A stretch of 64,000 bases of DNA from Vulcanimicrobiota bacterium (GCA_050250895.1 JBFWNU010000001.1:2214210-2278209), one strand, 5' to 3'. Counted from the stretch's first letter, positions 9,378-58,309 are shown. Made by a program: numbers and translations. The notes: generated by a model not told the origin, from the sequence alone.

Positions 9378-9560
9378 CGCAGCTCCTTATGGCACTTGGG
9401 ATTCGGCGTGGTTCTCGCGGCGAAAAAGGAACTCCTGCGTTTAACAAATTAGCAGTGAACCGGCAATAAAGTTTACAGGCTAGTTACAATGTTGCCGGTT
9501 CCTAACCGTTTTGCGGCGACTACAATTGGCTTAAGAGAAACGAAGAGAGGGTTACCGGTT

Positions 9561-10485: not shown

Positions 10486-10506
10486 CCGAGGGGAAGACCC
10501 TCCGGC

Positions 10507-10932
10507 TCAAGCGGGCAGGCTGGCCAATCCGAACCAATAGTCTTGGATTCGTTTCATGGCGTTGGTGAACTGTTCGAAGCCAACGGGCTTGGTTACATAG
10601 GAATTGGCGTGATGCAGATAGGCCTGGCAGACATCGCAGTTGGACTCGGAAGTGGTGAGGATTACGACGGGAATTTTGCACAACTGGGCATCCTCTTTGA
10701 TCTGCTGTAGAACCTCGTGTCCGCTCTTGCGAGGCAAGTTCAGGTCCATCAAGATTAGGTCGGGCCGTTGACTGGCCGTGTAGTCGCCCTGGCGATAGAG
10801 GAATTCGAGAGCCTCAACCCCGTTTTTCACTACGTCAAGATTAATCTTGAAGCTGGACTCGCTGAGGGCCTCTTGAGTCAAACGGATGTCGCCCGGATTA
10901 TCTTCGATCAGCAGGATATGGACGGTCTTCAT
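10507..10932 (-). CDS. Single-domain response regulator (CheY-like receiver)
   Basis: 141 aa. ILLIEDNPGD ... DLILMDLNLPRKSG ... VVILTTS ... YVTKP receiver motifs, including the phospho-acceptor Asp. Confidence 0.75.
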   Translation of the reverse strand: MKTVHILLIEDNPGDIRLTQEALSESSFKINLDVVKNGVEALEFLYRQGDYTASQRPDLILMDLNLPRKSGHEVLQQIKEDAQLCKIPVVILTTSESNCDVCQAYLHHANSYVTKPVGFEQFTNAMKRIQDYWFGLASLPA

Positions 10933-14577: not shown

Positions 14578-14620
14578 TCTGGCATAGGCGAACTCGAGCG
14601 TCCGGGATTGGAAGGAAACT

Positions 14621-17603: not shown

Positions 17604-17611
17604 GGCGCTCC

Positions 17612-20661: not shown

Positions 20662-21685
20662 GACGCGCCTCCTTGAGGGAAGACAACCATTTGGCGATAC
20701 TCTCGGGGCTGCGCGCCCGCGCCGTGGGAGCCTTCTCGAGGGCGCGTCGCGGCATACTCGCTACCAGGGCCGTGTCGGGCGCCTGCACGACGCCCAATCC
20801 ACCGGCCGCGGTCAGTTCGCCCAGGCCATCGGCTCCGTCACTTCCCATGCCGGTCAGCACCACCCCGGCCGCCCGACTCTTCAGGGCCTGAGCCAGCGAA
20901 CGCAGGAGCAGCGTGCCCGAGGGACGGTGGTATCCTACCGGCGGAGCATTGCTAAGCGAGAGCCGTCGGCCGAGCAGAGTAAGATGATAGCCGGACGGGG
21001 CCACATAGAGCCCGCCTCGAGTCAGGGTCTGGCCGTGGCTAGCTACGCAAACTTGCAGTCGCGTTTGAGTCTGAAGCCAGTTGGCGAAGTGGATCTCGAA
21101 GGTCGGGGTGATGTGCTGGACCAGCAGGATGGGCAGGTCGAAGTCCGGATCCAGCTTGCCAAAGATACTGGCTAATACGGCTGGCCCTCCGGTCGAAGCC
21201 ACCATGCCCACGGCTTCGCAGGTTTGGGGTCCGCCTCGGAGAGTCGCCGACTTGGGGCGGCCGTTTAGAGTGCGCCGCCGGCGTAGCACGGGCACCCGGC
21301 TCATGACCGCGAGCTTGGAATACAGGCTCTGGACCGCTCGCTCGTGTTCCGGGTCTGAGGGCGGCGGGGGTTTCTGTAAGACCTCCAGCGCCCCGAAGCG
21401 CAAGGCCTCGATGGCCCGGGTGTTGAGTTCGGGCAGCTTGCCGGTGACGACCACCACCGGAGTGGGATGGGTCTGCATGATGCGGCGCACGGCCTCGGCT
21501 CCGTCAAATTCGGGCAGGCAGAGGTCCATGCTGACGATGTCGGGACGCAGGCTTTCGGTCAGGGCGACCGCCTCGGGACCGCTGCCGGCCTCTCCCACCA
21601 CCTGGAAGCGCCCATCCTGGCTCAGGACGTGGCGAAGCAATACCAGATCGGCCTTCGAGTTCTCGACCAGTAGCACCCGAATCAT
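20654..21685 (-). CDS. cheB: Chemotaxis response regulator protein-glutamate methylesterase CheB
   Basis: REC N-terminal domain plus the CheB methylesterase domain (VASTGGPAVLASIF ... LLVQHI). Confidence 0.85.
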   Translation of the reverse strand: MIRVLLVENSKADLVLLRHVLSQDGRFQVVGEAGSGPEAVALTESLRPDIVSMDLCLPEFDGAEAVRRIMQTHPTPVVVVTGKLPELNTRAIEALRFGALEVLQKPPPPSDPEHERAVQSLYSKLAVMSRVPVLRRRRTLNGRPKSATLRGGPQTCEAVGMVASTGGPAVLASIFGKLDPDFDLPILLVQHITPTFEIHFANWLQTQTRLQVCVASHGQTLTRGGLYVAPSGYHLTLLGRRLSLSNAPPVGYHRPSGTLLLRSLAQALKSRAAGVVLTGMGSDGADGLGELTAAGGLGVVQAPDTALVASMPRRALEKAPTARARSPESIAKWLSSLKEARRD

Positions 21686-23766: not shown

Positions 23767-24251
23767 GGGGCTTGTCCTGTGAAGATGCGGTGGGCCAGTA
23801 GCTTGGCGGCATCCAACACGGCCACCCCGTCGCCGGTGAGCGCCTGGACGGCCGCCTCGCCCGGGGTGGGAGCCCGAAGTTGCTCTGGCCTGAGCTCGAG
23901 AAAGTCGCCCAGTTCGTCGACGGCCAGGCCGATCTCGCTGTGGGGATGGCGCAGTAGCAAGATCGTTACTCGTTGTCCCAGGGGGGCCTGGGTTCTCCCC
24001 AGCAGACGGGCCAGAGAAAACACCGGATGGAGTCGGCCCTGATGCTGGACCAGGCCCAGCAGTTCGGGCTCTGAACCCGGTAAGGGCGTAAGGTTTTGGG
24101 CCACGAACACCCCGGCCAGGGCCTTGAGATAAAAGCCTACGCGGGTTCGAGAAAGTAGCACGGTCAGACACGGCTCACCAACCTGTGTCGCCTGTCGGCG
24201 GCCGGGTGCGGCCAGAGCCTGACCACGTTGCCGGCGGACTTCATCGGTCAT
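23763..24251 (-). CDS. cheW: CheW coupling protein
   Basis: The internal ATG gives a 162-aa CheW-like domain (LGLVQHQGRLHPVFSLARLLG ... ILLLRHPHSEIGLAVDEL). The upstream part of the track ORF overlaps cheR. Confidence 0.7.
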   Translation of the reverse strand: MTDEVRRQRGQALAAPGRRQATQVGEPCLTVLLSRTRVGFYLKALAGVFVAQNLTPLPGSEPELLGLVQHQGRLHPVFSLARLLGRTQAPLGQRVTILLLRHPHSEIGLAVDELGDFLELRPEQLRAPTPGEAAVQALTGDGVAVLDAAKLLAHRIFTGQAP

Positions 24252-25575
24252 TGCCGACCCCCTTGAGCTGCCCGGAGACAGCCGAACGCAGCTCTTCTCT
24301 GGTGACGCCGTCAAGCCATTCAAGCCCGCGTGCCGAGCCCGGGTCAGACAGCAGCCTTTGCAGCGTCGATAGAGACTTGCGAGCGCGTTCAGCTTGACCC
24401 TGCTCGCGGGCGAAAATCGCCTGATAGTAGTGGGCCGGCAGGAAGCGACGATCGAGAAACAGAGCCCGGTCCAGCGCCTCGGCACAGGCTGTGGAGCGGC
24501 CCTGTTCGTCGAGCAGCAAAGCGTGCAGAAAGTGAGCGGCCGGCTCGAGGGGGTTGGCCTTCAAATAGCCTTCGCAGGCTGCCTGAGCCTGGAGGATTTG
24601 GCCTTGATCGGCCAGCTGGCGAATCTCTTTGAGGCTCGGGGCAGGCGGCGGCTGCCTGACGGCGGAGCAGCGTCGAGCCGGGCTCATGGACGAGCTGGGC
24701 GCCCGCGGGCGGGGGGGTTTGGAAACACTGGGTTTGAGGGGCTTGCGAAAAGCAGACACGCCCTCGAGGCGAACCCTTTCCAGGCCCTGCAAAAGATCCA
24801 GCCCCGGTTCGGAGTGACCTACCAGCAACCAGCCACCCGGCCGCAGACAGGCCCGCAGCGAAGCCAGGACGCGCCGCATCAAGCGCAGACTAAAATAGAT
24901 CATCACGTTGCGGCAGAGGATAAGATCCACGGAGCCCGGGCTCGGGAACTCCTGGCCGGCCAGGTTGTGAAAACCGTATTGAATCAGGTCGCGATACTTC
25001 TCTAGCAGCAACCAGCGGCCAGCTCGGGGCAGGAAGCACTCCCGTCGAACGGCCTCGGGGGTCGAGCGCAAGCTCCAGTTGTTGTAGCTGGCGGTCCGAG
25101 CTTGTTCGAGCGCTTGCTGATCGATGTCGGTGGCCCATAGCCCCAGGTTCCAGCCGGTCAGAGATTGGCTGAAGCCACGTCGCAGCAGGATATTGAGACT
25201 GGCGGGCTCGGCCCCGTTGGCACAACCGGCCGACCAGATTCGCAGACTGCGGCGGGTTCGATTTTGTTCGAGCAAGGCCGGAATGATCTCTCGCTCGAGG
25301 GCGAAGAAATGGCGTCGATTACGAAAAAAGTAGGTTTCCCCCACGGTCAGCACCGAAATCAGGCGCGCCATCTCTCCCTGGCTGGGGTCATAGGGACTTA
25401 GCTGCTCGAGATAGGCCTTGCAGCTGTTTGCGCCGACAGCCGTCAGCCGCTTGGCCACCCGCCGAGCGAGGTCCTCGGGGCGACTCTGGTAGTAATGAAG
25501 TCCTGAACTGGCCAGGGCCACGTCCCTCAGACGCTCAAAATGGGGGTCGGCCAGAACCTGGGCTTCACTGCTCAT
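24241..25575 (-). CDS. cheR: Chemotaxis protein methyltransferase CheR with C-terminal TPR repeats
   Basis: CheR N-terminal and SAM-methyltransferase domains (IWSAGCANGAEP), followed by a TPR-like C-terminal region. Confidence 0.8.
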   Translation of the reverse strand: MSSEAQVLADPHFERLRDVALASSGLHYYQSRPEDLARRVAKRLTAVGANSCKAYLEQLSPYDPSQGEMARLISVLTVGETYFFRNRRHFFALEREIIPALLEQNRTRRSLRIWSAGCANGAEPASLNILLRRGFSQSLTGWNLGLWATDIDQQALEQARTASYNNWSLRSTPEAVRRECFLPRAGRWLLLEKYRDLIQYGFHNLAGQEFPSPGSVDLILCRNVMIYFSLRLMRRVLASLRACLRPGGWLLVGHSEPGLDLLQGLERVRLEGVSAFRKPLKPSVSKPPRPRAPSSSMSPARRCSAVRQPPPAPSLKEIRQLADQGQILQAQAACEGYLKANPLEPAAHFLHALLLDEQGRSTACAEALDRALFLDRRFLPAHYYQAIFAREQGQAERARKSLSTLQRLLSDPGSARGLEWLDGVTREELRSAVSGQLKGVGNDR

Positions 25576-26066
25576 TTTGCGGCCGCCCCCGCTCTGGCCA
25601 GCCTACTTTGGGCTCGTTGTTGGAGTGCCCGCGTGGCTGCTTGCTCGTAATCTTGCAGGAGTTTGACCTCGCAGAGCAAGCTCAAGAGGCCGATTTCCGT
25701 TGTGGCCACCAGAGCCTCCACGCAAGGCGCAAACGCCTCATGGTCTTGCTCTACCGGCTGCCAGGTTCCGGGGGGTAGCAAGGTGTGAGCTCGAAACACG
25801 TGCAGGGCGAATGGAGGCGGTTGCCCACGCAAGATCAAGAGAGGGCTATAAAGGTCTAGTTCTCGGATGGGAAGACCCCAGAGCCGGGCCGGACAGACAA
25901 CCGGCACGGCCAGCCCTTCGTAATTGAGCACCCCGGTGACGAAGTCGGGGCTCTCGGGCACCTGGGCCAGTTCTGGGCAGGGCACGATTTCTTGCAAAGC
26001 ACTCGAGCGTAGCGCCAGCTGCAAATCGCAGACCTCGAACCGCAGCAGGTGCTCGCCCGGGTTCAC
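25572..26066 (-). CDS. Second CheW-like coupling protein
   Basis: 164 aa with a CheW-like core (FVTGVLNYEGLAVPVVCPARLWGL). It overlaps the cheR start by 4 nt. Confidence 0.55.
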   Translation of the reverse strand: MNPGEHLLRFEVCDLQLALRSSALQEIVPCPELAQVPESPDFVTGVLNYEGLAVPVVCPARLWGLPIRELDLYSPLLILRGQPPPFALHVFRAHTLLPPGTWQPVEQDHEAFAPCVEALVATTEIGLLSLLCEVKLLQDYEQAATRALQQRAQSRLARAGAAAK

Positions 26067-26476
26067 GGACGCCTCACCAACGTAAGCCCCAGTTGGTCCA
26101 CGGCGGCGACCACTTTCAGCAGTTGGGCCAATCCGATGGGCTTCTCCACGAAAACGTCTGGCGGCGGGGTGTCGGCTGACAATAGCTCGGGTTGGCTGGT
26201 CGCAATGGCCACGGCGATATCACAGAACTGCTCATCGGATCGAATGCGAGCCAGGAGTTCACCTCCATCCATGGAGGGCAGTTGCAGGTCGAGCAAGATC
26301 AGATCGGGTCTGGGTTGGTCATGATATTCGCCCCGGCGATAGAGAAAGTCGAGGGCCGGCGGCCCGTCGCGAACGACGTGGATGGCGTTGAAGACCTTCG
26401 AGTCCTTGAGGTTCTCGAGGGTCAGCAAAATATCTCCCGGGTTGTCCTCTACGAGGAGAATCTCCAGTGGTTTCAA
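26063..26476 (-). CDS. Single-domain response regulator (receiver), probable TTG start
   Basis: Receiver motifs ILLVEDNPGD ... LILLDLQLPSMDG ... FVEKP. There is no ATG or GTG before the domain. A TTG at 26476 is preceded by GGGAG and overlaps the upstream kinase stop as TTGA. The 5' 90 codons of the track ORF are out-of-frame overlap with the upstream gene. Confidence 0.5.
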   Translation of the reverse strand: MKPLEILLVEDNPGDILLTLENLKDSKVFNAIHVVRDGPPALDFLYRRGEYHDQPRPDLILLDLQLPSMDGGELLARIRSDEQFCDIAVAIATSQPELLSADTPPPDVFVEKPIGLAQLLKVVAAVDQLGLTLVRRP

Positions 26477-28959
26477 CAGGCTTGCTCCCGGCGCGCCTCG
26501 GAATGGCGCGGTAAAGTGATCGAGACGACGACCCCCCTCTCCCTTCTTCGATTTCTGATCGAGATTGTCCCCTTGAAACGGGCAACGATTGTTTGACACA
26601 AGTGAAGGCCTAAACCTACTCCGGGAAACTCCTCTCTTCCATGGAGTCGGCCAAATAGACGGAAGCAACGCTCGGTGTCTTCGGAGGGCAAACCGGGGCC
26701 GTTGTCGCTCACCGTCAAGAGCCACTGGGTGCCTGCGTCGACACACTCCACCACCACGGCAGGTGTCTCGTCACCACGAAATTTGGTGGCGTTGGAAAGC
26801 AGCTGGAAGAAGACCTCTTCGAGCAATCGCTCGGGCATCGTCACCACCGGCTTCGGACCGAGCCAGGTGATCCTGGCATCGACTTCGCCCAGGCGCTCCA
26901 GACTGCTCTCGAAGGCGGCCCCGCAGTCGGCCTCGCCACCCTCCACGGCCGCTCCCTCGAGGCGCGAGAGAAAGAGCAAGCCCGTCAACATCTGTTGCAT
27001 CCGTCGGGCTCCGTCGATGGCAAACGCCACGAACTCGGCCTGGTCGGCGGGAAGGGTAGTGGACGCCCTGCGATTGAGCAACTCGAGATAGCCAACCACC
27101 ATTCGTAGTGGCTCTTGCAGATCGTGGGATAGCACGTACTGGAGGTGGGCTAACTCCAGGCGGGCTCTGGGTTCACTGTGGGTAACCTGGGCCTTCGAGC
27201 GCACCAGGCAGCCGCGTCGATGCTCGTCGATGGGCCAGGTTTGGGCCATTTTCAGGGCCTCGGCCAGGTTGACCGGATCGGACTTGAGGGCCAGGGCGGT
27301 CGGGTTGCAGGGGCGGATGCCCCCATCGTCGTCGAGCACGAAGATGGCCTCGGGGCAGCGGGCAAACACTGCCTCGAGGGTCTCGGTGAAGGGGTCGGGG
27401 CCCTGCCCGGTGGGGTCGGGCAGCAACGGCGGGGGGGCCTCGAGAACTTCTTCGACCCGCGTCAGCAGTCGGCCCGGTGTGAACGGTTTGAGCAGTATCG
27501 GGAGAGGGTGTTCCGATTTGATGGGATCTTCGGCGTGACTGGTGAGCATGACTACCCGCAACTGAGGGGACCGCCGGTGGAACTTCCTGGCCAACTCGAG
27601 TCCCGGCGTGCGCCCAAATTGGCGAGCCACGATCAAAAGCTCGACACGAGAATCGAAGAGCGCCTCGGCTTCGCTAGGACCGGCCGCCAGGCGTATTTCG
27701 AAGCCGACCTTTTCGAGCACTTTCTGAATCAGGCGCCGCAACGACGAACTGGGCTCGACCGCCAGCACGGTCGCGGTGCGACTGGGCGAGGTGATCTCGG
27801 CGGGCGACGCCGGATCGGCCATCGTCTCTTCACTCAGCGGCAGATACACGGTCATGCGAGTGCCGCTACCAAGGTCGCTGTCCACCTCGATGGCTCCGTT
27901 ACAGGAACGGAGAATACCGTAGACGGTGGACAGCCCCAGACCGGTACCGCGGCCCTCGGGCTTGGTGGTGTAAAAGGGGTCGAAGATCCTGGACATCTCT
28001 TCGGGGGAGATGCCACAGCCGCTGTCGGCCACCGACAGGCGGGTATAGCTGCCTGCCTCGCGCAAGCCCAGGCGTTCCTTTTGCGCTTCGCCGATCTCGA
28101 CTGACGAGGTTTCTACCAGGATTCGCCCCCCCTCGGGCATGGCATCGCGGGCGTTGACGACCAGATTGAGAATGACCTGCTCGAGGTGTCCCCGGTCGGC
28201 CTTCACCCACGGCAGCGGAGTTTGCAACTCGATGTCGAGAGTGGTCTGCTTGGGTAGCAGACGGTTTAGCATGCGAACCATATGATCGACCACCTCGTTG
28301 ACATCCACCGCCTCGAGGCGAGGCTGATCGCGGCGGCTGAAAGCCAGGATCTGCCGAGTCAGGTCAGCGGCCCGCTCGCCGGCTTTCTGGATCTCTTCGG
28401 CGTCGGCTCGGCTTTGCGGATCTTCGAGTTCGGCGCAGAGGATGCTCGAATACCCGAGGATGCTGGTGAGCATGTTGTTGAAATCGTGAGCGATGCCTCC
28501 GGCCAGCCGGCCCAGAGCCTCGAGCCGTTGGGCTTCGCGGAAACGGTCGCGGGTGGCCAACATGGCTTCGGTGACCCGCTTGCGTTCGATGGCATGCAGC
28601 AGCACGCGACGCAGCACGGCGGCCTTGGCGCTGTCCTTGACCAGATAGTCTTCGGCTCCTTCTCGCAAGGCCGCGATGGCCATGCGCTCGTCGTCAAAGC
28701 CCGTGAGAACCACGATGGGTATCGAGGGAAATTGCGCCCGCAGAGTCGATACCCCGCCCAGACCCGTGGCGTCCGGCAGCGACAGATCAAGCAGGATTAT
28801 GTCGATGCCGGGCTGCTTGAGGCGTCGAGTGGCTTCGGAGAGCCGATTGACCTCTTCCACCTGGATCCGAGGCTCCTGAATCTCGGCCAGCTCTAGCTTG
28901 ACCAGTCGGCGCTCGTCTGGTGAGTCCTCAATCAGCAGCACCTTGAATTCGCTGAACAA
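26473..28959 (-). CDS. Multi-domain hybrid sensor kinase (REC-HisKA/HATPase-REC-HisKA/HATPase)
   Basis: N-terminal REC (VLLIEDSPDE; ILLDLSLPDATG), an H-box (IAHDFNNML) with HATPase (GTGLGLSTV), a second receiver-like region, and a second H-box (YVLSHDLQEPL) with HATPase (GVGLGLHLCQ). Confidence 0.75.
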   Translation of the reverse strand: MFSEFKVLLIEDSPDERRLVKLELAEIQEPRIQVEEVNRLSEATRRLKQPGIDIILLDLSLPDATGLGGVSTLRAQFPSIPIVVLTGFDDERMAIAALREGAEDYLVKDSAKAAVLRRVLLHAIERKRVTEAMLATRDRFREAQRLEALGRLAGGIAHDFNNMLTSILGYSSILCAELEDPQSRADAEEIQKAGERAADLTRQILAFSRRDQPRLEAVDVNEVVDHMVRMLNRLLPKQTTLDIELQTPLPWVKADRGHLEQVILNLVVNARDAMPEGGRILVETSSVEIGEAQKERLGLREAGSYTRLSVADSGCGISPEEMSRIFDPFYTTKPEGRGTGLGLSTVYGILRSCNGAIEVDSDLGSGTRMTVYLPLSEETMADPASPAEITSPSRTATVLAVEPSSSLRRLIQKVLEKVGFEIRLAAGPSEAEALFDSRVELLIVARQFGRTPGLELARKFHRRSPQLRVVMLTSHAEDPIKSEHPLPILLKPFTPGRLLTRVEEVLEAPPPLLPDPTGQGPDPFTETLEAVFARCPEAIFVLDDDGGIRPCNPTALALKSDPVNLAEALKMAQTWPIDEHRRGCLVRSKAQVTHSEPRARLELAHLQYVLSHDLQEPLRMVVGYLELLNRRASTTLPADQAEFVAFAIDGARRMQQMLTGLLFLSRLEGAAVEGGEADCGAAFESSLERLGEVDARITWLGPKPVVTMPERLLEEVFFQLLSNATKFRGDETPAVVVECVDAGTQWLLTVSDNGPGLPSEDTERCFRLFGRLHGREEFPGVGLGLHLCQTIVARFKGTISIRNRRRERGVVVSITLPRHSEARREQAC

Positions 28960-28966
28960 GGTTGCG

Positions 28967-47824: not shown

Positions 47825-48574
47825 ATGCTGGAATCTGTGAAAAACCTTATCGACGGACTGATCTCTTTCTTCTTGCCGCGAGGCGGGCGAACTCCCGAGG
47901 AGCGACGCCGGCTCATTCGAGTCAAGTGCGAATATGAGGTCAGTTGCATTTCGGGCAATCGCAGCTTTCCGGCGGTGGTGGTCGACATGGGTCTGAGCGG
48001 TCTGCGACTGCAGGTGCCCAACCGGCTCAAACAAGGTGGCACGGTCTATATCCATCACCCCAAGCCCTCGAACCGTTTCAACAACGAGCACGTGATGTGT
48101 ACGGTCATGTGGTGTCGTCGCAAGGCTGGCACCAACGAGTTGGAGGCCGGTCTCAAATACGCCGACACGCCGGGCAACATGCGCCGATCGTGGGTGAAAT
48201 TCTTGCTCAAAGAACTCGGCTTTGAGGAGCGGGCCATCTATAGCCGCCGCAAAGCTATCCGGGCTCCTTCCGAGTTGTCGGCTCGGCTGCGCAATCAGGG
48301 CGGCGAGGCCCTGGAAGGCCGGGTCATCAACCTGGGTATCGGGGGGGCGCTGTTTGAATCCGATGGCGGCTTCTCTCCGGGTCAGGCGGTGCGACTCGAG
48401 ATGGACCGGGTCGGGCGGCTCAAGAAGATCGAACTCGACGCGACCGTGATCACGACCAGTCGCCAGGATGACGACTCCTATCATCTCAGCCTGCGCTTCA
48501 CCGACCCGTCCTCGAAAGAGGTAGAGAGAGTGGGTGACTACGTGTTGTTGCTGCTAAAGAATGCTGCCGAGTGA
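47825..48574 (+). CDS. Tandem PilZ-domain protein (c-di-GMP receptor-like)
   Basis: Two PilZ signatures: RRRLIRVKCEYEV...DMGLSGLRL and RKAIRAPSELSARL...NLGIGGALFE. Confidence 0.55.
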   Translation: MLESVKNLIDGLISFFLPRGGRTPEERRRLIRVKCEYEVSCISGNRSFPAVVVDMGLSGLRLQVPNRLKQGGTVYIHHPKPSNRFNNEHVMCTVMWCRRKAGTNELEAGLKYADTPGNMRRSWVKFLLKELGFEERAIYSRRKAIRAPSELSARLRNQGGEALEGRVINLGIGGALFESDGGFSPGQAVRLEMDRVGRLKKIELDATVITTSRQDDDSYHLSLRFTDPSSKEVERVGDYVLLLLKNAAE

Positions 48575-49331
48575 GATCGCGAGCTGCTTCGGCCGAATTC
48601 CGGCCCAGGCGGCGATCTGTTATCGCGACCTGACCGGCAGTCAGGCGTGGGGGCAGGACCACCGTCAAGACTTTCCCGCCGCCAGCGTCATCAAAGTGGC
48701 CATTATGGTCGAGTTGCTGCAACGCGTCGAGGCCGGCCAGAGCCGGTTGACCGAACGCCTTGAAGTCGCTTCGGATCGGCTGGTGGGCGGGGCCGGTGTG
48801 CTTTTCGAGCTTGATCCCGGGCTGCGCCTGAGCCTGGGTGACCTGTGCCGGTTGATGATCGTGGTCAGCGACAACACCGCCTCCAATCTGTTGATTGACT
48901 ATTTGGGAGGGCTCGAGGTCATGACCGCCGCCATGGCCGAAATGGGCTTGTCGGCCCGGCTGGGGCGCTACTTTATGGAACCCCCGATTGGTCAACGCGA
49001 TAACCGGATGACCTGTGAAGACGCGGTCGTCCTGCTGTGGCGATTGCGTCGAGGAGAGCTACTCGGCCCTGAATTGACCACTTTCGCCCGGGGCGTGCTC
49101 GAGCGCCAGCAGTATCGCGAGAAGATTCCCCAGCGTCTCCCGGCCGAACTGGTGGTGGGCCACAAGACCGGCGAACTCGATGGGGTGCGTCACGACGCTG
49201 CTATTGTCGAGCACTCTCGGCCCTATGTTCTGGCCATCTTTACGCGCAATGGCGGCCATGCCTGGGAGGTGGACGAGCACATCGCCCTGACCTCGCGGGC
49301 GGTCTATGATTGGGTGGAACAAGATGTATAG
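48561..49331 (+). CDS. Class A beta-lactamase-like serine hydrolase
   Basis: SVIK (SxxK), SDN and KTG (HKTGE) motifs in the correct order and spacing. No obvious signal peptide. Confidence 0.55.
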   Translation: MLPSEIASCFGRIPAQAAICYRDLTGSQAWGQDHRQDFPAASVIKVAIMVELLQRVEAGQSRLTERLEVASDRLVGGAGVLFELDPGLRLSLGDLCRLMIVVSDNTASNLLIDYLGGLEVMTAAMAEMGLSARLGRYFMEPPIGQRDNRMTCEDAVVLLWRLRRGELLGPELTTFARGVLERQQYREKIPQRLPAELVVGHKTGELDGVRHDAAIVEHSRPYVLAIFTRNGGHAWEVDEHIALTSRAVYDWVEQDV

Positions 49332-50199
49332 AAGCGGCTTCGTGGCCCTGGTCGGCAAGCCCAATGTGGGGAAGTCGACTCTGATCAACCGTCTGGTGGG
49401 AACCAAGGTCGCCATCACCTCCTCCAAGCCCCAAACGACCCGGCATCGGGTGCTGGGCGTCATGCACGGTCAGGAGTATCAGATCGTGCTGGTGGACACT
49501 CCCGGACTCATGCAACCGCGCCACGCCCTCGGCCGCAAGATGGAGAAATGGGCCCTCGAAGAGAGTCGCGAGGCGGACCTGGTGTTGTTCCTGGTCGAGT
49601 TGACGCACGCCCCCACCGCCGAGGACCGCTTTGCGGCCGAGCATCTGGCCCCGCTGGGAGACCGGGTCTGGTTGGTGATGAACAAGCTCGACCGGTGCAA
49701 GGACGAACAGGTGGCCGAGCAGTACCAGGCGTTGGGCGGCTATCCGCGCAGCTTCCAGGTTTCCGCCCTCGAGGGGCAGGGGTTGGAACAGCTTACCCAG
49801 GCTTTGTGCGAGGTCTTGCCCGAAGGCGACCCCTTTTTCCCCCCCGACCAGGTGACCGACCAGAATCGGGCTCTGTTGGCCAGCGAGGTGATCCGCGAGA
49901 AGGTCCTGCATCTGACCCGCCAGGAGATTCCTCACGCCGTGGCCGTGGTGGTCGACGAGCTGCGCCCCGCCGACAAACCCGACATGCTGTATCTGAGCGC
50001 CTATCTCTATGTAGAGCGGCCCAATCAAAAACGCATCCTGATCGGAAAGAACGGCCAGTTGCTAAAGTCCATCGGCGCCGAAGCCAGACTCGAACTCGAG
50101 CAACTATGGGGGCAACGCGTCTTTCTCGAGCTATGGGTCAAAGTGAAGGAAGGCTGGCGCGACCGCGAGGACTGGCTCCGCTCCCTCGGCTATGAATAA
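49306..50199 (+). CDS. era: GTPase Era
   Basis: G1 GKPNVGKST, TTR, DTPG, NKLD and a C-terminal KH domain. Confidence 0.85.
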   Translation: MIGWNKMYRSGFVALVGKPNVGKSTLINRLVGTKVAITSSKPQTTRHRVLGVMHGQEYQIVLVDTPGLMQPRHALGRKMEKWALEESREADLVLFLVELTHAPTAEDRFAAEHLAPLGDRVWLVMNKLDRCKDEQVAEQYQALGGYPRSFQVSALEGQGLEQLTQALCEVLPEGDPFFPPDQVTDQNRALLASEVIREKVLHLTRQEIPHAVAVVVDELRPADKPDMLYLSAYLYVERPNQKRILIGKNGQLLKSIGAEARLELEQLWGQRVFLELWVKVKEGWRDREDWLRSLGYE

Positions 50200-50640
50200 G
50201 TCGGCCCAGCGGCGCGGCGCGAAGCGCCGTAGGGAATGACGAGAAGGCCGCATCCTGTGCAGTTTCAGCTAGTGGTCATACCTTCTCGTCGTTCCCGTAG
50301 AGCCGCGGCCGGGCCGACGCCCATACGAAGTCGGCCCAGCGGCGCGGCGCGAAGCGCCGTAGGGAATGACGAGAAGGCCGCATCCTGTGCAGTTTCAGCT
50401 AGTGGTCATACCTTCTCGTCGTTCCCGTAGAGCCGCGGCCGGGCCGACGCCCATACGAAGTCGGCCCAGCGGCGCGGCGCGAAGCGCCGTAGGGAATGAC
50501 GAGAAGGCCGCATCCTGTGCAGTTTCAGCTAGTGGTCATACCTTCTCGTCGTTCCCTTAGAGCCGCGGCCGGGCCGACGCCCATACGAAGTCGGCCCAGC
50601 GGCGCGGCGCGAAGCGCCGTAGAGTGGCAGCGGCCGAGCC
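50200..50640. repeat. 130-bp tandem repeat, 3.3 copies, each containing a 16-bp-stem hairpin
   Basis: Copies start at 50200, 50330, 50460 and 50590 (partial), with 1 mismatch among the full copies. Each has the inverted repeat GGGAATGACGAGAAGG...(33 nt)...CCTTCTCGTCGTTCCC and a second IR, GCCGGGCCGAC/GTCGGCCCAGC, spanning the unit junction. Confidence 0.85.
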
Positions 50641-50718
50641 AAAGGAACCCCTGATCGAGCCGTCGAACGGTCGGGCCTCGGGAGTGCCACTCCCCTAAAG
50701 ATTGAAAGGCGACAAGCA

Positions 50719-51024
50719 ATGATCACTACTTACGAAGCCCTGGGCATGATTGAAACCAAAGGCCTGGTGGCGATGATTGAAGCTGCCGATGCTATGGTCA
50801 AGGCGGCCAACGTGAAACTGATCGGTTACGAGAAAATCGGAGCCGGCTATGTGACCGCTCTGGTTCGCGGCGATGTGGCTGCCGTGCGTGCGGCTACCGA
50901 TGCCGGCGCTTCTGCCGCCCGCAAAGTGGGCGAGCTGATCGCCGTCCACGTTATTCCCCGTCCCCACAAGGATCTCGACGATGTGCTACCGATCGCCCCT
51001 CCCCGTGAGAAAGCCGGGAAGTAG
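50719..51024 (+). CDS. BMC-H hexameric microcompartment shell protein (PduA/EutM family)
   Basis: [30 protein letters not shown]...[17 protein letters not shown] is the canonical BMC domain. Confidence 0.85.
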
Positions 51025-51043
51025 TCCAGGCTCGAGCCATTAG

Positions 51044-51781
51044 ATGGACCCCGCTCTGATCGATACGATCACCGAGCTGGTCCTGCGCGAACTGCAAGGC
51101 AATCAGCCGGCGGGGCCGCCCGCCCCTCCCAAACAGGGCAAGAAGGTGCTCTTGTGCCCGGGGCCGGGCGCCGGCAGCTCGGCGATCTGGCAGGGGCTGG
51201 CTCAGCTCTCGGACATTGGCTGGCAAGCCGTGGCCTGGCCCGGCTTTGACACTCATCGCCTCGAGCGCGCGCTGGGCCGCAAGGTGCCGACTTCGGACCC
51301 TCCCACCTGCTGGGAACAGCTGGTTCAAGGGGTAGAGGCGGTCGTCTTGCCCAGCCTCGATCTGGGTGGGTTGGCCAGCCTGGCCTTGCTGCTGACCGAC
51401 CGCCCCCCGGCCGGGGCCGGCGTGGCCGGGATCGTGCTCGGCAAGCCGGTGCTGGCCCTCAACGAGGGGCTGGAGCGCTATCGACGCCACTCGGCTCGCT
51501 TGCCGGGCGGGTTTTTAGATGTCTTCGAGCGTCACTATCGAGGGGCCGAGAGTATGGGCGTCACTTTTTTAGGGGTGGGGGAGCTGGCCGGGGCTCTGGC
51601 CGGTCCGGGGGCCAAGAAGGTCACCGCCACCTCGACCGGGCGCGACGTGGTCACTCTGGAAGACCTCGAGGCGGTGCGGCGGCGTGGCCAGACGGTGCTG
51701 GAAGTGTCGGCCGGGGCCATCGTCACCCCGCTGGCCAGCCAGGCCGCGCGAGAGATGGGGATTGAGGTGAAGACTCGATGA
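51044..51781 (+). CDS. BMC-associated protein of unknown function with encapsulation-peptide-like N-terminus
   Basis: The N-terminal amphipathic helix ([18 protein letters not shown]), then a P/G linker, resembles the N-termini of the downstream AldDH and DeoC. The C-terminus ends [24 protein letters not shown]. Confidence 0.4.
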
Positions 51782-52083
51782 TCTTGGCGAAAGTCGTGGG
51801 TACAGTGGTCTGCACCCAAAAAGAGCCGCGCCTCGACGGGCTGAAGTTGCAGCTGGTCTGCCCGCTTTCGCTAGCCGATATGGCCGTCGACGGCAAGCCG
51901 CTGGTAGCCGTCGACGCCGTCGGGGCCGGACCCGGCGAGGTGGTTCTGGTGGCCGCCGGCAGTTCGGCGCGCCAGACCGAGGCGACCCTCAACACCCCGA
52001 CCGATGCCGTCATTATGGGCATCGTCGATACAGTCGAAATGGAAGGCAAGACCGTCTTCCAGAAACATCGGGCCAAGGAGTAG
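51778..52083 (+). CDS. BMC-P pentameric vertex protein (EutN/CcmL/PduN family), copy 1
   Basis: [27 protein letters not shown]...[22 protein letters not shown] is the EutN/CcmL fold signature. Confidence 0.8.
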
Positions 52084-52086
52084 GCA

Positions 52087-53523
52087 ATGGATATCGACCG
52101 CGACGTCATTCGCAAGATTGTGGAAGAGGTGGTGCGCCAACAGATCGGCTCAGGCTCGGCGCCACGCTCGGTCGAAGTTCCGGTGGCCAGTGGTCGCTAC
52201 GGAATCTTCACTTCGGCCGACGATGCGGTGGCCGCAGCCGGCGAGAGCTACAAAGCCTGGTTCTCGATGAGTCTCGAGACCAAAGCTGCCTGTGTCCAGG
52301 CGATGCGAGACGTTTCTCTGGCCCAGGCCCGTCCCATGGCCGAATTGGCTCATGCCGAGACCGGTCTCGGTAGGGTCGAGGACAAAGTCAACAAGAATCT
52401 GCTCCAGGTGGCCAAGACGCCCGGACTAGAGGATGTCAAGCCTCAGGTGTTTACCGGAGACCGCGGTCTGACCCTGGTCGAGAAGGCTCCCTTCGGGGTG
52501 ATCTGCTCGGTCACGCCCACCACCAATCCGGTGGCGACCATCATCAACAACTCGATTTCGATGGTGAGCGGCGGGAACGCGGTGGTCTTCAATCCCCACC
52601 CGCGCGCCAAAGGGTGCTGCAATCAGATGATTCAGCTGCTCAACCAGGCCATCCACAAGGCCGGGGGCCCTCCCACCCTGCTCACTTCCGTGGCCGAGCC
52701 TACCATCGAGACCTCGCAGGCCCTGATGAAGCACAAGGGAGTGCGTTGCTTGGTGGTGACCGGCGGTCCGGGCGTGGTGGCCCAGGCCATGGCCAGTGGC
52801 AAGAAAACGATCGCGGCCGGTCCCGGCAATCCGCCGGTGGTCGTCGACGAGACGGCCGACCTGCGCCAGGCTGCCCGCGATACGGTGGCCGGCTCGTCGT
52901 TCGACAACAACGTGATGTGCACGTGCGAGAAAGAAGTCTTCATCGTCGATAGCGTCTTTCGCGAGTTCAAAGAGCATATGCTCAATAACGGCTGCTACGA
53001 ACTCACTCCTCGCCAGCTCGACGAGCTCACCCGGGTCATCTTCCAACCACCGCCGGTGGGCAGCACCAAGACGGTGCTCAACCGTGACCTCATCGGTCAG
53101 CACGCCAGCGACATCGCCCGCACCATCGGGCTTGACCTGCCCCGCGACACGCGGCTTTTGATCGCCGAGACTCCCTTCGAGCATCCGCTGGTGCTCAAAG
53201 AGCAGATGATGCCGGTGCTGCCGCTGGTTCGTTGTCGTGATGTCAACGAGGCCATCGAGCGCGCCGTCCAGGCCGAGGGCGGGCGCTATCACACGGCCGT
53301 GATGCATTCGCGCAACATCGAGAACCTGTCGCGCATGGCCCGGGTGGTCAACGCCAACATCTTCATCAAGAACGGGCCCAACTACGCAGGTCTGGGCTTC
53401 GGAGGCGAAGGCTTTACCACCATGACCATCGCCGGCACCACCGGTGAAGGGGTGACCTCGGCTCGCACCTTCACTCGCGAGCGCCGCTGCGCCCTCATCG
53501 ACTATTTCAGGATTCTAGGCTAG
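52087..53523 (+). CDS. CoA-acylating aldehyde dehydrogenase (PduP/EutE family)
   Basis: FGVICSVTPTTNPVATIINNSISMVSGGNAVVFNPHP, plus the catalytic Cys region and an N-terminal encapsulation-peptide-like helix (MDIDRDVIRKIVEEVVRQQ). Confidence 0.8.
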   Translation: MDIDRDVIRKIVEEVVRQQIGSGSAPRSVEVPVASGRYGIFTSADDAVAAAGESYKAWFSMSLETKAACVQAMRDVSLAQARPMAELAHAETGLGRVEDKVNKNLLQVAKTPGLEDVKPQVFTGDRGLTLVEKAPFGVICSVTPTTNPVATIINNSISMVSGGNAVVFNPHPRAKGCCNQMIQLLNQAIHKAGGPPTLLTSVAEPTIETSQALMKHKGVRCLVVTGGPGVVAQAMASGKKTIAAGPGNPPVVVDETADLRQAARDTVAGSSFDNNVMCTCEKEVFIVDSVFREFKEHMLNNGCYELTPRQLDELTRVIFQPPPVGSTKTVLNRDLIGQHASDIARTIGLDLPRDTRLLIAETPFEHPLVLKEQMMPVLPLVRCRDVNEAIERAVQAEGGRYHTAVMHSRNIENLSRMARVVNANIFIKNGPNYAGLGFGGEGFTTMTIAGTTGEGVTSARTFTRERRCALIDYFRILG

Positions 53524-53532
53524 GAGGTCCCC

Positions 53533-53994
53533 ATGCGGGTTGTAATCGGTAGCGATCACGGAGGCTACGAGCTCAAGAACGAGCTGGCCGGGCTGATTCG
53601 AGAGCTGGGCCACGAACTGATCGATTTCGGCACCCACGGACCCGACCCGGTCGACTATCCCGATTTCGCCTTACTGGTGGGCAAGGCCGTGGCCAACGAC
53701 CCCGATCACACCCTCGGCATCGTGGTCGATGGGGCCGGCTGCGGCAGCGCCATCACCGCCAATAAAGTGCCGGGGGTGCGTGCGGCTGCCTGCTACTGCA
53801 CGGCCACGGCCAAGAACTCTCGCGAGCACAACGACGCCAATGTCTTGACCCTGGGTAGCAAGATTACCGGGTCCGAGGTGGCCAAAGATATCGTGCGCAC
53901 CTGGCTCGGCACCCCTTTTGCCGGCGGGCGCCACTCGCGCCGAGTCGAGAAAGTGCTCTTGATCGAGCGACGTTTTGCCAAGGAGGCGCCGTAG
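53533..53994 (+). CDS. rpiB: RpiB/LacA/LacB-family sugar-phosphate isomerase
   Basis: MRVVIGSDHGGYELK ... GAGCGSAITANK ... the ribose-5-phosphate isomerase B fold. Confidence 0.8.
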   Translation: MRVVIGSDHGGYELKNELAGLIRELGHELIDFGTHGPDPVDYPDFALLVGKAVANDPDHTLGIVVDGAGCGSAITANKVPGVRAAACYCTATAKNSREHNDANVLTLGSKITGSEVAKDIVRTWLGTPFAGGRHSRRVEKVLLIERRFAKEAP

Positions 53995-54261
53995 TTGTTT
54001 CTGGGTCGGGTTTGCGGGACGGTGGTGGCCACCCATCGAGTAGACAACCTCGACGGAGCGACCTTTCGTGTGGTGGTGCCTGTGAATCACGACGGCTCGC
54101 CTTACGGTAAACCCTTCGTGGCTGTCGACAACGTCTCGGCCATGACCGGCGATCTGGTCTATCTGGTCAAGGGCAAAGAGGCCATCATCCCCTGGAAGCG
54201 CTCGGATATGGCGCCCATTGATGCCGCCATCGTGGGGTTGGTGGATGGGATGGATATCTGA
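53995..54261 (+). CDS. BMC-P vertex protein, copy 2
   Basis: MFLGRVCGTVVATHRVDNLDGATFRVVVPV...VAVDNVSAMTGDLVYLVKG. Confidence 0.75.
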   Translation: MFLGRVCGTVVATHRVDNLDGATFRVVVPVNHDGSPYGKPFVAVDNVSAMTGDLVYLVKGKEAIIPWKRSDMAPIDAAIVGLVDGMDI

Positions 54262-54554
54262 TGCTCTATGCACGGATTTTAGGAAGTTTGTGGGCCACCG
54301 CTCAGGTGGCGGGCTTTGAGGGTAGATCTCTTAAGCTGATCGAGCCTGTCGATGCGCGGACCGGTAAGGGCGCGGGGGACACGCTGCTGGCGGTCGACCT
54401 GGTCGGGGCGCGCAAGGGTGACCACGTTCTGGTCGTCTACGAGGGCAGCTCGTCGCGTCTGGCCATGGGCAGTCAGACGACGCCCTGCGAGGCGATCGTG
54501 GTCGGCATCGTGGATCGGCTCGATTTGGAAAGTGAGGAATCAGGTGGACATTGA
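54261..54554 (+). CDS. BMC-P vertex protein, copy 3
   Basis: [30 protein letters not shown]...[24 protein letters not shown]. Its start overlaps the copy-2 stop by 1 nt. Confidence 0.75.
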
Positions 54555-55500
54555 AGCGATTGTAGCCAGAATCACCAGGGAAGTGGTGGAAGAACTCCAG
54601 CGCCCGCAGGCGGCCTCGTCCCCCTCTGCCGAGGTGGACCGCACCGCCCCTCCAGGACGTCTGCGCGTGGCCGAGGGCTCGTCTTCGAACGGTTCAGGCA
54701 AGGTCTGCATGGAGCGTCTCACCGGCGAGTGCGCCGGAGTTGGCTGCTGTGCTCAGTTGCTTCCCGAGCGGGTGCGGGCCGTGATCGAGTCCGGGGCCGA
54801 CCGGGTGGGCAATTCCCCCGGGGGGGTGGTGGACGGGGCCGACATCGCCGCCCGTATCGACCACACTTTGCTCAAAGCCGACGCTACCCGCCAGGAAGTC
54901 CTCGAGCTGTGCGACGAGGCCCGCACCCACCGGTTTGCCTCGGTCTGCATCAACCCGGCTTTCGTGGCCACGGCCGCCGACGCTCTGCGGGGCACCGGGG
55001 TCAAAGTTTGCACCGTCGTGGGCTTTCCGCTGGGAGCCACCACGACCCTCACGAAAGTCACCGAGACCCGAGATGCGCTCGCCAACGGGGCCGACGAGAT
55101 CGACATGGTGATCAACATCGGAGCCCTCAAGAACAACCAGGATGACCTGGTCGAATCCGATATCCGCGAGGTGGTGGCTGCCGCCGGCGGGCGCATCACC
55201 AAAACGATTTTCGAGACGGCCATCCTCTCGGACGACGAAGTGGTGAGGGCCTGCCTGTTGGCCAAGCGGGCCGGAGCAGATTTCGTCAAGACCTCGACCG
55301 GATTCGGTCCAGGCGGAGCCACTGTGCATCACGTGGCTTTGATGCGCCAGACGGTGGGACGCTCCATGGGAGTCAAAGCCTCGGGCGGGGTGCGCGATCT
55401 CGAGACGGCCCGCCAGATGATCGAGGCGGGAGCCACCCGAATCGGGGCCAGTGCTTCCGTCAAGATCGTGCGCGGTGAGCAAGGCAGCGGCAACTACTGA
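54544..55500 (+). CDS. deoC: Deoxyribose-phosphate aldolase (DeoC) with N-terminal encapsulation-peptide-like extension
   Basis: DeoC core ([11 protein letters not shown]...[10 protein letters not shown]...[14 protein letters not shown]...KTSTGF). A GTG start at 54544 is preceded by AGGAAT and begins [19 protein letters not shown]. The 5' part of the track ORF is out-of-frame overlap with BMC-P copy 3. Confidence 0.75.
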
Positions 55501-55526
55501 GCAAGTTCTTCAAGACCGAGGCGCTG

Positions 55527-56234
55527 GTGCTCGAGCGTCGACCACTGGGAGAGTCCGACGAGATCGTGGCTCTGCTCTCGCCTGTGCGAGGACGCTTTGA
55601 TGCGGTGGCGCGAGGCTCTCGCAAGGCCTCCAGCCCCTGGGTAGCCAGGGTCGAGCCGTTCACTTTGCTCAGCGGCCAGTTCGCGGCCGGTCGCAAGGAC
55701 CTGGACTATTTCAATCAGGCGCGGGTGGTCAAAGCTTTTGGGGGCCTGCGCCAGTCGCTTGACAAGATGGTCTATGGTAGCTATGTGCTCAAGTTGGTGC
55801 GAGACGGCCTCGAGCAAGGCGAATCCATCCCCGAGTTCTTTCGCCTCTTGCTAGACTGGCTATCTCAGCTGGAGGAGCAAGAGCCGGGACCAAGCCTGGT
55901 TCGCTGGTTCGAATTGCGATTGGCCCGTCAGCTGGGGGTCGAGCCCCAACTAGATCGGTGCACTGGCTGCGGAAATGCCGACGTGGTGGGCTTCTCGCCG
56001 GTGGCCGGCGGGGTGGTCTGTGGCCAGTGCCGGGATCGGACCAGCCTGCGGTTAGCTCCGGGCGGGCTGGCGGCCCTGCGCTATCTTGGTCGCAGCCGTC
56101 TCGAGGCGACCACGCGGCTCCGGCTATCGCCAGCCGACGCCGGTGACCTGGAGGCCGCCCTGACCGCTCATCTTAGCGAGCACTGGCCCAGCGGGCGCCG
56201 ATTTCCACAAATTTCCAAGGAGTTGCTGTCGTGA
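55527..56234 (+). CDS. recO: DNA repair protein RecO (start codon uncertain)
   Basis: RecO N-terminal OB-fold and zinc-binding CTGCG...CGQC motif. The conserved N-terminal residues (KTEALVLERR) lie upstream of the first GTG, so the real start may be non-canonical or further upstream. Confidence 0.65.
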   Translation: MLERRPLGESDEIVALLSPVRGRFDAVARGSRKASSPWVARVEPFTLLSGQFAAGRKDLDYFNQARVVKAFGGLRQSLDKMVYGSYVLKLVRDGLEQGESIPEFFRLLLDWLSQLEEQEPGPSLVRWFELRLARQLGVEPQLDRCTGCGNADVVGFSPVAGGVVCGQCRDRTSLRLAPGGLAALRYLGRSRLEATTRLRLSPADAGDLEAALTAHLSEHWPSGRRFPQISKELLS

Positions 56235-56647
56235 GAGTGCTAGCCATCGATCCCGGCAAGAAGCGGGTGGGAGTTGCCCTGAGCGACCCCACGGGCACCC
56301 TGGCCTCTCCCCTGGTCACCCTCGAGGGTCGCGAGCAAGAGAAGCTGCTGGTCGAGATTGCCGGACTGGTCGCAGAACATGGCGTCCACCGAGTGCTGGT
56401 GGGCCATCCCAAGAACATGGATGGCTCCATCGGTCCCGCCGCCAAGGCGGCTCAGCGCCTCGCTCGGGCTTTAGAAGAACGGCTGGCGGTGCCGGTCGAG
56501 TTAGTCGATGAGCGATTGTCGTCGAGTCAAGCCAGGGTGGCCATGCGTGAGGCCGGAACCAACGCCAAGAAAGCCCGAGAGAAGGTCGATCAGATGGCGG
56601 CCGTAGTGGTGTTGCAGGCCTATCTGGAAAGGAACCGTTCGGGCTAA
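56231..56647 (+). CDS. ruvX: Holliday-junction resolvase-like RuvX/YqgF
   Basis: RVLAIDPGKKRVGVALSDP... is the YqgF RNase H-like fold. It overlaps the recO stop by 4 nt. Confidence 0.8.
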   Translation: MRVLAIDPGKKRVGVALSDPTGTLASPLVTLEGREQEKLLVEIAGLVAEHGVHRVLVGHPKNMDGSIGPAAKAAQRLARALEERLAVPVELVDERLSSSQARVAMREAGTNAKKAREKVDQMAAVVVLQAYLERNRSG

Positions 56648-56664: not shown

Positions 56665-57672
56665 GTGAAGGTCCTTCTCAACCTTTTCAAGGTCGGGTGT
56701 CTGCTTTTTATCGTTCTCTCGTGCGCTGCCATGTGGCTGCTTTATCAGTCGATCGTGCCGGCTGACGGCGAAGGAACCAGGCCGGCCCTCGTGTTCGAGG
56801 TGCGCGAAGGCGCCTCGGGCAAGGTGATCGCCGAGGAACTCGAGCAGAAAAAGGTGATCCGGTCAGCCATGGCCTTCCGCCTTTTGCTGCGCTACAAAGG
56901 CGATCAGGGCGTGCTGAAAACCGGCTATTACGAAGTCGACCCCAAGTTGCCCACCCTGAAGGTGTTCGAGCAGCTGGTCAAAGGGAAGACTCTTACTCGC
57001 AAGGCCACCGTTCCCGAGGGGCTGACCATGGCCCAGACGGCCGAATCGCTCGAAAAGCAAGACATCGCCCCCGCCCAGGAAGTGTGGGCTGCCGCCAATG
57101 CAGGTGGCAATCGCTACGGCAAAATCTATCCGGACAACCTCGAGGGCTACCTCTTTCCCAATACTTACGAGTTCCCATACCAGTCCGACGGCGAGGCGGC
57201 CGTGCGCACGATGCTGGCCCTTTTCGAGGCCGAGATCTTGCCGATGTGGGAAAAATCCAAGGGAAAAACGGGATTGGACCTTCATCAGACCATCATCCTC
57301 GCCTCGCTGGTCGAACGCGAGGCCCAGGTCGCTTCAGAGAGACCGCTGATCGCTGGCGTCTACCTCAATCGCATCAAAAAGGACATGTTGTTGCAATGTG
57401 ACGCCACCGTTCAGTTTGCTCTGGGCAAGCCCCGAGCCGTGCTGACTTATCAAGATCTCGAAGTGCGCTCTCCTTACAATACGTATCTCTACAAAGGTCT
57501 GCCCCCGGGTCCGATCGCCAGTCCCGGCAAGGCTTCCATCGAGGCGGCCATGAATCCGAAATCGTCGAACTATCTCTTTTACGTACGCAACGACGTCAAA
57601 GGGGATGGGAGCCACGTATTCACCACCAATTACGCGGAGCACCAACGAGCCATTGACAAGTATCAGCGTTAA
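56665..57672 (+). CDS. mltG: Endolytic murein transglycosylase MltG (YceG family)
   Basis: N-terminal TM, a LysM-like region, and the YceG catalytic domain ([10 protein letters not shown]...ASLVEREA). Confidence 0.75.
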
Positions 57673-58309
57673 CAAACCCCTGGTCATCGGGGTGGCCGGG
57701 GGCACCGGCAGTGGCAAAACCACCGTGGCCAGAAGCCTGGTCGAGATCTTCGTTCACCGACCGATCGTCCTGATTCCCCAGGATGCCTACTATCGTGACC
57801 AGAGCCACCTGAGCGCAAGCGAGCGTGCCGAGACCAACTATGACCATCCTCTGGCTTTCGACAACGACCTGCTGGTGGAGCACCTCGATGCGCTCTGTCG
57901 CGGCGAGTCGGTCAACCAACCCGTCTACAATTTCGTGACCCACACGCGCGCGGTCGAGGTCAAACGGGTGGATCCCGCCCCCATTCTCGTGGTCGAAGGC
58001 ATTCTCGTGCTTGAGGAAGAGCGTTTGCGTCAACGCATGGACATCAAGGTGTATGTCGATACCGACTCGGACGAGCGCTTCATCCGCCGGTTGGGACGAG
58101 ACATGCTCGAGCGTGGCCGCTCGGTGGAATCGATCGTCGATCAATACCTGAACTCTGTTCGTCCCATGCACCTGCAATTCGTCGAGCCGACCAAGCGCTA
58201 TGCTGATCTGATCATCCCCGAGGGGGGGGCAAATTTGGTGGCCATCGACCTGCTAGCGGTCAAGATCCGTTCGACCCTCGATCAACAGGCGCCGGCTAAC
58301 GCCTCTTGA
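57605..58309 (+). CDS. udk: Uridine kinase
   Basis: P-loop [14 protein letters not shown], and [10 protein letters not shown]. The true start is probably the TTG at 57653, because the track start overlaps mltG. Confidence 0.7.

Follow-up and report, generated by a model that had tools for sequence, protein, structure and literature searches.

A predicted sugar-phosphate-utilisation microcompartment operon, probably an ancient insertion, between era and recO in a Vulcanimicrobiota bacterium

Locus and gene content

The window analysed here is a 64-kb stretch (one strand, positions counted from its first letter) of the genome of a Vulcanimicrobiota bacterium (GCA_050250895.1, JBFWNU010000001.1:2214210-2278209); Vulcanimicrobiota is the NCBI name of the Eremiobacterota (WPS-2), the host phylum. 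Between the housekeeping genes era and recO the window carries a bacterial microcompartment (BMC) locus that is, judged from its predicted proteins, a complete, minimal operon of the sugar-phosphate-utilisation (SPU) type. Comparison with relatives and outgroups indicates that this operon is probably an ancient insertion, fixed and vertically inherited in its clade, and not a recent horizontal acquisition.

Gene identities were obtained by Pfam and NCBIfam profile searches. They bear out the layout given in a preliminary description of this DNA, according to which era ends at 50199, recO begins at about 55527, and a repeat array and the whole BMC locus lie between them on the same strand. The gap measures 5.3 kb and holds, all on the + strand, the tandem array and eight tightly packed microcompartment genes. 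The same description had referred the pair to an rnc-era-recO operon: era and recO are indeed present, but rnc is not found 5′ of era, where a Beta-lactamase2-like gene stands instead. The features are listed below.

48561..49331, + strand: Beta-lactamase2-family gene (Pfam PF13354, 200 bits), its 3′ end overlapping the era start
49306..50199, + strand: era, GTPase Era (MMR_HSR1 and KH_2); the public annotation starts at 49324 (291 aa)
50198..50622, + strand: tandem array, 130-bp unit, 3.3 copies (TRF score 843)
50641..50669, + strand: non-coding motif AAAGGAACC-N15-CGAACG, from an alignment of 13 era-to-BMC-H spacers
50719..51024, + strand: BMC-H shell hexamer protein (PF00936, 104.8 bits)
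51044..51781, + strand: 245-aa operon protein (no Pfam match; TIGR02536 "eut_hyp", 32.5 bits, cut-off 152.6)
51778..52083, + strand: BMC-P (EutN/CcmL) pentamer protein 1 (PF03319, 100.6 bits)
52087..53523, + strand: acylating aldehyde dehydrogenase (AldDH), EutE/PduP type (PF00171; NF011927, 638.8 bits, cut-off 403)
53533..53994, + strand: RpiB, ribose-5-phosphate isomerase B (PF02502, 170.2 bits; NF004051 and TIGR01120 above cut-off)
53995..54261, + strand: BMC-P pentamer protein 2 (PF03319, 86.8 bits), 37% identical to BMC-P 1
54261..54554, + strand: BMC-P pentamer protein 3 (PF03319, 74.5 bits), abutting BMC-P 2
54544..55500, + strand: DeoC, deoxyribose-phosphate aldolase (TIGR00126, 280.8 bits, cut-off 117.3, residues 102-309; PF01791, E 2e-16)
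55527-56234, + strand: recO from its GTG, with the homologous N-terminus from CTG 55497 (RecO_N and RecO_C; TIGR00613, 139.6 bits)
56231-56647, + strand: ruvX (Pfam RuvX)
56665-57672, + strand: mltG/YceG (Pfam YceG)
57605-58309, + strand: udk (by synteny)

The deoC start was adopted from the gene call on contig L081, an independent assembly; with this start DeoC is extended at its N-terminus by about 100 aa, beginning with an amphipathic helix. The three BMC-P proteins are mutually 35-37% identical. On the 3′ side of recO, ruvX, mltG and udk form a tightly packed block, beyond which pilB/T/C genes follow in the window.

Microcompartment type and predicted function

SPU loci are defined by pfam01791, pfam02502, an AldDH and at least three BMC-P genes, two of them adjacent (Sutter et al. 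2021, PMC8217296 and Supplementary Data 2), and are patchily distributed over 26 phyla (PMC8217296). In the shell-protein trees of that catalogue, the BMC-P paralogues of SPU loci belong to the grey, orange and green/blue/purple clades. The locus between era and recO encodes a pfam01791 DeoC, a pfam02502 RpiB, a pfam00171 acylating AldDH, three PF03319 proteins and one PF00936 protein; it was assigned to the SPU type because this content, with aldolase, isomerase, acylating AldDH and a BMC-P triplet, fits the published definition. No BMC-T gene was found in the 64-kb window, and a tblastn search with BMC-H returned one single-domain gene only; a satellite locus may lie elsewhere in the 3.95-Mb genome. 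None of the eight genes of the interval matched PTAC (pfam06130) or triosephosphate isomerase.

What is known of the chemistry of these protein families suggests that RpiB and DeoC act on (deoxy)ribose-5-phosphate that stems from nucleic acids. DeoC would release acetaldehyde, which AldDH would turn into acetyl-CoA within the shell. By translation, AldDH (DVIRKIVEEVVRQQI), DeoC and the 245-aa protein carry an N-terminal amphipathic-looking helix and a Pro/Gly/Ser-rich linker, much as encapsulation peptides do, and these helices probably target the three proteins to the shell lumen. The 245-aa protein is found at the same position in all relatives (35-48% identical). Its sub-threshold match suggests a distant relative of the TIGR02536 family; a profile search found no PDB relative, and an AlphaFold2 single-sequence model (pLDDT 49), with a helix at residues 3-18, was poor except for the C-terminal 45 residues.

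The operon varies in content at a slot between AldDH and RpiB. This slot is empty in the window (53524-53532, so that RpiB begins 9 bp past the AldDH stop) and in locus L095. In most relatives it holds a polytopic membrane protein of 408-528 aa, 31-38% identical between clades A and B (L001 13688-14914; L096 12899-14485), for which no Pfam or NCBIfam match was obtained; in L094 the slot is taken by an unrelated gene of 922 aa with a Spermine_synth domain, on the - strand (7832-10600).

Conservation in relatives

Relatives were collected by a genome scan with Era and then from the contigs of Era homologues between 67% and 53% identical. Three Vulcanimicrobiota metagenome-assembled genomes (L001-L003), with Era about 55% identical to that of the window, have the order era/BMC-H/245-aa homologue/BMC-P/AldDH/(one extra gene)/RpiB/BMC-P/BMC-P/DeoC/recO/ruvX/mltG/udk/pilB. 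All 12 relatives whose contigs continue past era (Era 53-67% identical) have BMC-H directly 3′ of it, which together with the window makes 13 genomes (the window, L001-3, L086, L093-97, L099, L100 and L102). At the other end, deoC followed by recO was seen in ten (the window, L001-3, L086, L094-L097 and L100, the contig of the last stopping inside recO). The preliminary description had envisaged relatives lacking the microcompartment in which era is followed at once by recO; no such empty site was encountered, and no clade member without the BMC operon was found among those sampled. The contig of L092 (64% Era identity) stops 26 nt 3′ of era and so is uninformative.

Further searches started from RecO. 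A metagenome scan with a RecO alignment produced ten loci, among them L086, a metagenome contig with the same gene order; eight from unrelated organisms (L082-L085 and L087-L090) had no era or microcompartment genes nearby, and on the 1.7-kb metagenome contig L091 era stands directly before recO. A RecO profile search yielded 49 matches and confirmed three lineage contigs; it did not reach the deeper AldDH group.

The extent of the lineage was estimated from a neighbour-joining tree built with the 120 best matches to Era, in which about 97 clusters fall into one clade that contains every BMC-positive genome. For 18 further clusters, an in-clade Era and a lineage-type AldDH could be paired through contigs of equal length (one of 5,045 bp), which is indirect but strong evidence for linkage of the two genes. 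Within the lineage BMC-H is 89-99% identical and AldDH 68-86% identical to that of the window. RecO is only 28-47% identical across the syntenic genomes, so the shared arrangement is deep. The ruvX-mltG-udk block is syntenic in relatives with sufficiently long contigs. The genes 5′ of era vary by subclade (Beta-lactamase2, glnA or lysine aminomutase); the Beta-lactamase2 gene adjoins era also in L092-L097 and L102, that is, in part of the lineage.

Ancestral state of the junction

In other bacteria era and recO are commonly neighbours, as in rnc-era-recO of E. coli and cdd-era-recO of Bacillota. The frequency of this arrangement was determined by a jackhmmer RecO search over 77 non-lineage genome loci, 71 of which had enough sequence 3′ of era. 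A RecO open reading frame begins less than 550 bp past era in 60 of these 71, including loci from Gammaproteobacteria, Clostridia and Nitrospirota, and adjacency is missing from the other 11. Locus L101, which has the nearest Era outside the clade among those inspected, reads ybeY-dgkA-corC-cdd-era-recO-glyQ-glyS without microcompartment genes; its era and recO overlap, and sporulation genes lie 5′ of the era neighbourhood. Adjacency is the widespread state outside the lineage, as the preliminary description had supposed. Given the 60 of 71 loci and L101, the simplest history is that of a single insertion between the two genes.

Trees, composition and mobility signals

Neighbour-joining trees of the flanking proteins Era, RecO and RuvX agree in their groups with those of the cargo proteins AldDH, DeoC, RpiB and the 245-aa protein: L001-3 with L086 and L100, L096 with L097, and the window, L094 and L095 as deep single branches. 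Pairwise distances of cargo and flank are correlated accordingly (Pearson 0.85-0.94).

The preliminary description had pointed to GC content and codon usage as means of setting the interval apart from its flanks; in both, as in tetranucleotides, it proved ordinary. The GC content of the operon is 0.641 (0.623 ± 0.021 in equal-sized windows) and its tetranucleotide distance 0.172 (0.159 ± 0.032), 19% of equal-sized windows being more deviant. Leave-one-out codon log-likelihoods range from z -2.3 to +1.3, and third-position GC (GC3) and codon likelihoods fall in the range covered by the other 41 genes.

Integration scars had likewise been expected at the borders, with direct repeats at 50.2 and 55.5 kb. 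None came to light: no direct repeat brackets these positions, a search for direct and inverted repeats at the borders gave only chance-level short matches, and none of the genes recognised in the interval and directly beside it is integrase-like. There is no tRNA at the locus either; the sole tRNA found in the window is at 6987, 43 kb away.

The 130-bp tandem array

The array at the left border (50198-50622, period 130, 3.3 copies) is 99-100% identical between copies, with one substitution. The 130-nt unit is predicted to fold into a nested multi-hairpin structure (-73.3 kcal mol−1, z -6.7). It matched no Rfam family at the gathering threshold and gave only chance-level matches at E values up to 10; no further copy of the unit was found in the window or in 102 fetched loci. 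Contig L081 starts inside the last array copy, an edge that fits a real repeat.

The era-to-BMC-H spacers of relatives are 63-149 bp long and bear no trace of the array, which is, as read from this comparison, a later expansion private to the window genome, placed in the spacer between the era stop and the conserved motif. Because it is absent from every relative, the array was ruled out as an integration scar at the left border. Insulation between era and the operon and stabilisation of the mRNA are possibilities for its role.

A separate observation concerns L092, whose contig ends (9880-9905) in a stretch rich in G and C (…CCCCGGCGCGTAGCGCTC) that recalls the first hairpin in the repeat unit of the window; this genome may also carry a repeat 3′ of era.

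Age of the insertion

Presence of the operon in all sampled relatives, congruent trees and ordinary composition argue that the insertion is not recent. On this evidence the operon would have entered an ancestral era-recO junction once, in the ancestor of a large Eremiobacterota/Vulcanimicrobiota clade, and would have been inherited vertically since, so that it is now part of the same-strand string era-BMC-recO-ruvX-mltG-udk; its genes are probably co-transcribed. An ancient insertion, fixed and vertically inherited, is given a probability of roughly 0.8. Of the horizontally acquired insertion put forward in the preliminary description, the insertion relative to an ancestral era-recO pair is retained, but the evidence speaks against a recent event.

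Several points weigh against an ancient single insertion. The empty era-recO site is seen only in other phyla, and no Eremiobacterota genome without the microcompartment was found; the neighbour-joining tree of Era is not a species tree; and the pairing of Era and AldDH through equal contig size is indirect. A search of 90% clusters, moreover, gave AldDH proteins at 54-65% identity named Candidatus Xenobia, Ca. Eremiobacteraeota, Armatimonadetes, Chloroflexi and Firmicutes; with this tier, the depth of the insertion may differ from that proposed, and transfers in or out, or relocation, may have occurred.

Among the alternatives, an improbable one is that the BMC locus was there first and that separate rearrangements brought era and recO to its flanks, or that adjacency was never ancestral in the phylum. 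The failure to recover a microcompartment-free Eremiobacterota locus would agree with this, as would the 11 of 71 outgroup loci without adjacency and the differing genes 5′ of era among subclades, which show that rearrangements happen. Two coincident events would be needed, however, in place of one, and era and recO have kept the order and strand that they have in the operons of the 60 of 71 loci and L101.

It is very unlikely that the era-recO junction is instead a hotspot that captured related SPU cassettes several times in different sublineages. The AldDH-RpiB slot does show that the locus tolerates gene gain and loss, and the AldDH relatives at 54-65% occur under several phylum names; but gene order is identical in all genomes, the cargo trees mirror the flank trees and the motif in the BMC-H spacer is kept in most lineage genomes. 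Lineage AldDH proteins, moreover, are 68-86% identical to that of the window, whereas the best representatives of 50% clusters, at 41-55%, stand equally far from every lineage member.

A recent genomic island in this organism or its close kin, with scars at 50.2 and 55.5 kb that include the array, is contradicted by the data and very unlikely: BMC loci are compact modules known to cross phyla (PMC8217296), the interval splits a pair that is adjacent in most other bacteria and a repeat array stands at its left border, but the same insertion is present in every relative with sequence past era, down to 53% Era identity, trees are congruent, composition and codon usage are ordinary, flanking direct repeats and an integrase-like gene were not found among the sequences and identified genes of the interval and flanks, and the array is absent in every relative.

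Conserved spacer motif and the deoC/recO junction

Signs that the operon may have become integrated with its neighbours were seen at both of its ends. At the 5′ end, most of the 13 spacers contain the motif AAAGGAACC-N15-CGAAC (GGAACC-N15-CGAAC), in which two GAAC cores are exactly 20 nt apart. In the alignment AGGA and GAA do not vary, the C positions beside them hardly vary, and the complete GGAACC/CGAAC cores are not kept in L095 and L102. The motif sits between the array and the ribosome-binding site of BMC-H (GAAAGG), which follows it, and in clade A a variable GC hairpin and a T-run lie between the two. Searched against Rfam with gathering as well as permissive thresholds, the window and L003 spacers gave nothing credible; consensus folding of six clade-A spacers was weak and without compensatory pairs; and scans of 49-58.5 kb for sigma-70 promoters and intrinsic terminators gave no more sites than shuffled sequence. 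The motif is a candidate promoter, operator or leader of the microcompartment operon, a promoter or operator being as likely as a leader RNA since no conserved RNA fold was demonstrated.

At the 3′ end, eight of nine genomes close deoC with TAC TGA, and in six of these eight (the window, L094, L100 and L001-3) the recO frame is open from the CTG of the CTGA that includes the deoC stop, which in the window is CTG 55497; residues from there align with the ATG-initiated RecO N-termini of L096 and L097 (MSRLFKSLVLVLKRR). TIGR00613 aligns from profile position 2 only if the upstream ten codons are included. Gene callers take a downstream GTG or TTG behind GAGG or GGAGG, as at GTG 55527 of the window, which is preceded by GAGG, and thereby drop about the first ten residues of the homologous N-terminus. 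The six CTGA genomes represent three deep branches in which recO is without a canonical start at the homologous N-terminus; L095, L096 and L097 use a separate ATG. This pattern suggests a non-canonical or coupled recO start at a CTG overlapping the deoC stop, and recO appears to have been fused into the microcompartment operon in several lineages.

A stronger proposal is that the BMC operon is functionally part of the housekeeping operon: recO would start at the CTG by termination-reinitiation, the supply of RecO would be coupled to expression of the organelle, and the spacer motif would regulate the whole string. This is tentative and rather unlikely on present evidence. If true, supply of a recombination-repair protein would be tied to an organelle thought to digest DNA-derived sugars, and the motif would be a previously undescribed regulator.

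Other features of the window

Two features at some distance from the locus were recorded. An 810-aa open reading frame at 30785-33217 (- strand) contains a major-vault-protein (MVP) shoulder domain (PF11978, 93 bits) and represents a bacterial MVP-like protein. A large chemosensory/two-component cluster occupies 13006-29722, with MCP, a CheA-like kinase, CheB, CheR, several hybrid kinases and HD_5 response regulators.

Significance

Microcompartment loci are usually seen as mobile modules; here one has kept a single address in a housekeeping string across a large, little-studied clade. The locus is a synteny marker for this Eremiobacterota lineage and a natural example of an organelle operon apparently fused to DNA-repair genes. 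As a compact SPU locus without BMC-T in the 64-kb window, with one hexamer, three pentamers and three enzymes, it could serve as a minimal model shell. For genome scans it holds a caution, in that the interruption of a conserved gene pair does not by itself point to recent transfer.

Comparison with known systems

The nearest relatives among described microcompartments are SPU loci of subtypes SPU1-7 (Axen et al. 2014; Sutter et al. 2021, PMC8217296). Like SPU1-7 loci, the present operon combines DeoC, RpiB and an acylating AldDH with three distinct BMC-P proteins, two of them adjacent beside the signature enzymes, and one BMC-H, and its AldDH and DeoC have N-terminal extensions resembling encapsulation peptides. 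It shares an eut_hyp-like accessory protein with SPU4, for which such a protein has been described (PMC8217296), and an equally small enzyme set with SPU2. It differs from SPU2, SPU3, SPU5 and SPU6, which have BMC-T, in having none in the 64-kb window; from SPU1 and SPU4, which carry PTAC and triosephosphate isomerase, in having neither; from SPU7 in being without PTAC; and from SPU4, which has two BMC-H, in having one. Further differences from the SPU catalogue are the fixed chromosomal address between era and recO and the unannotated membrane-protein gene inside the operon in many relatives. Eremiobacterota/Vulcanimicrobiota are not among the hosts in the text and supplements of that catalogue that were examined (PMC8217296), and a literature search found no paper linking Eremiobacterota or WPS-2 to microcompartments. 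The microcompartment is thus of a known kind, in a phylum for which no literature report was found; it stands out mainly in that its address is fixed and that it appears to be fused with recO.

The closest parallel in history is the SPU operon of Hodarchaeales (Asgard archaea), for which one ancient horizontal transfer followed by vertical inheritance was inferred from congruent operon and species trees (bioRxiv 10.1101/2025.11.08.687404). An ancient arrival with later vertical descent is proposed in both cases; the Hodarchaeales operon has an archaeal host and, from its phylogeny, a Myxococcota donor, whereas here no donor was identified and the operon lies within a string of housekeeping genes. 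With the era-recO operons of other bacteria the locus shares gene order and strand, though neither rnc nor cdd lies 5′ here, and it resembles them in the tight coupling of the recO start to the preceding gene: recO overlaps era in L101, whereas in the window its frame overlaps deoC.

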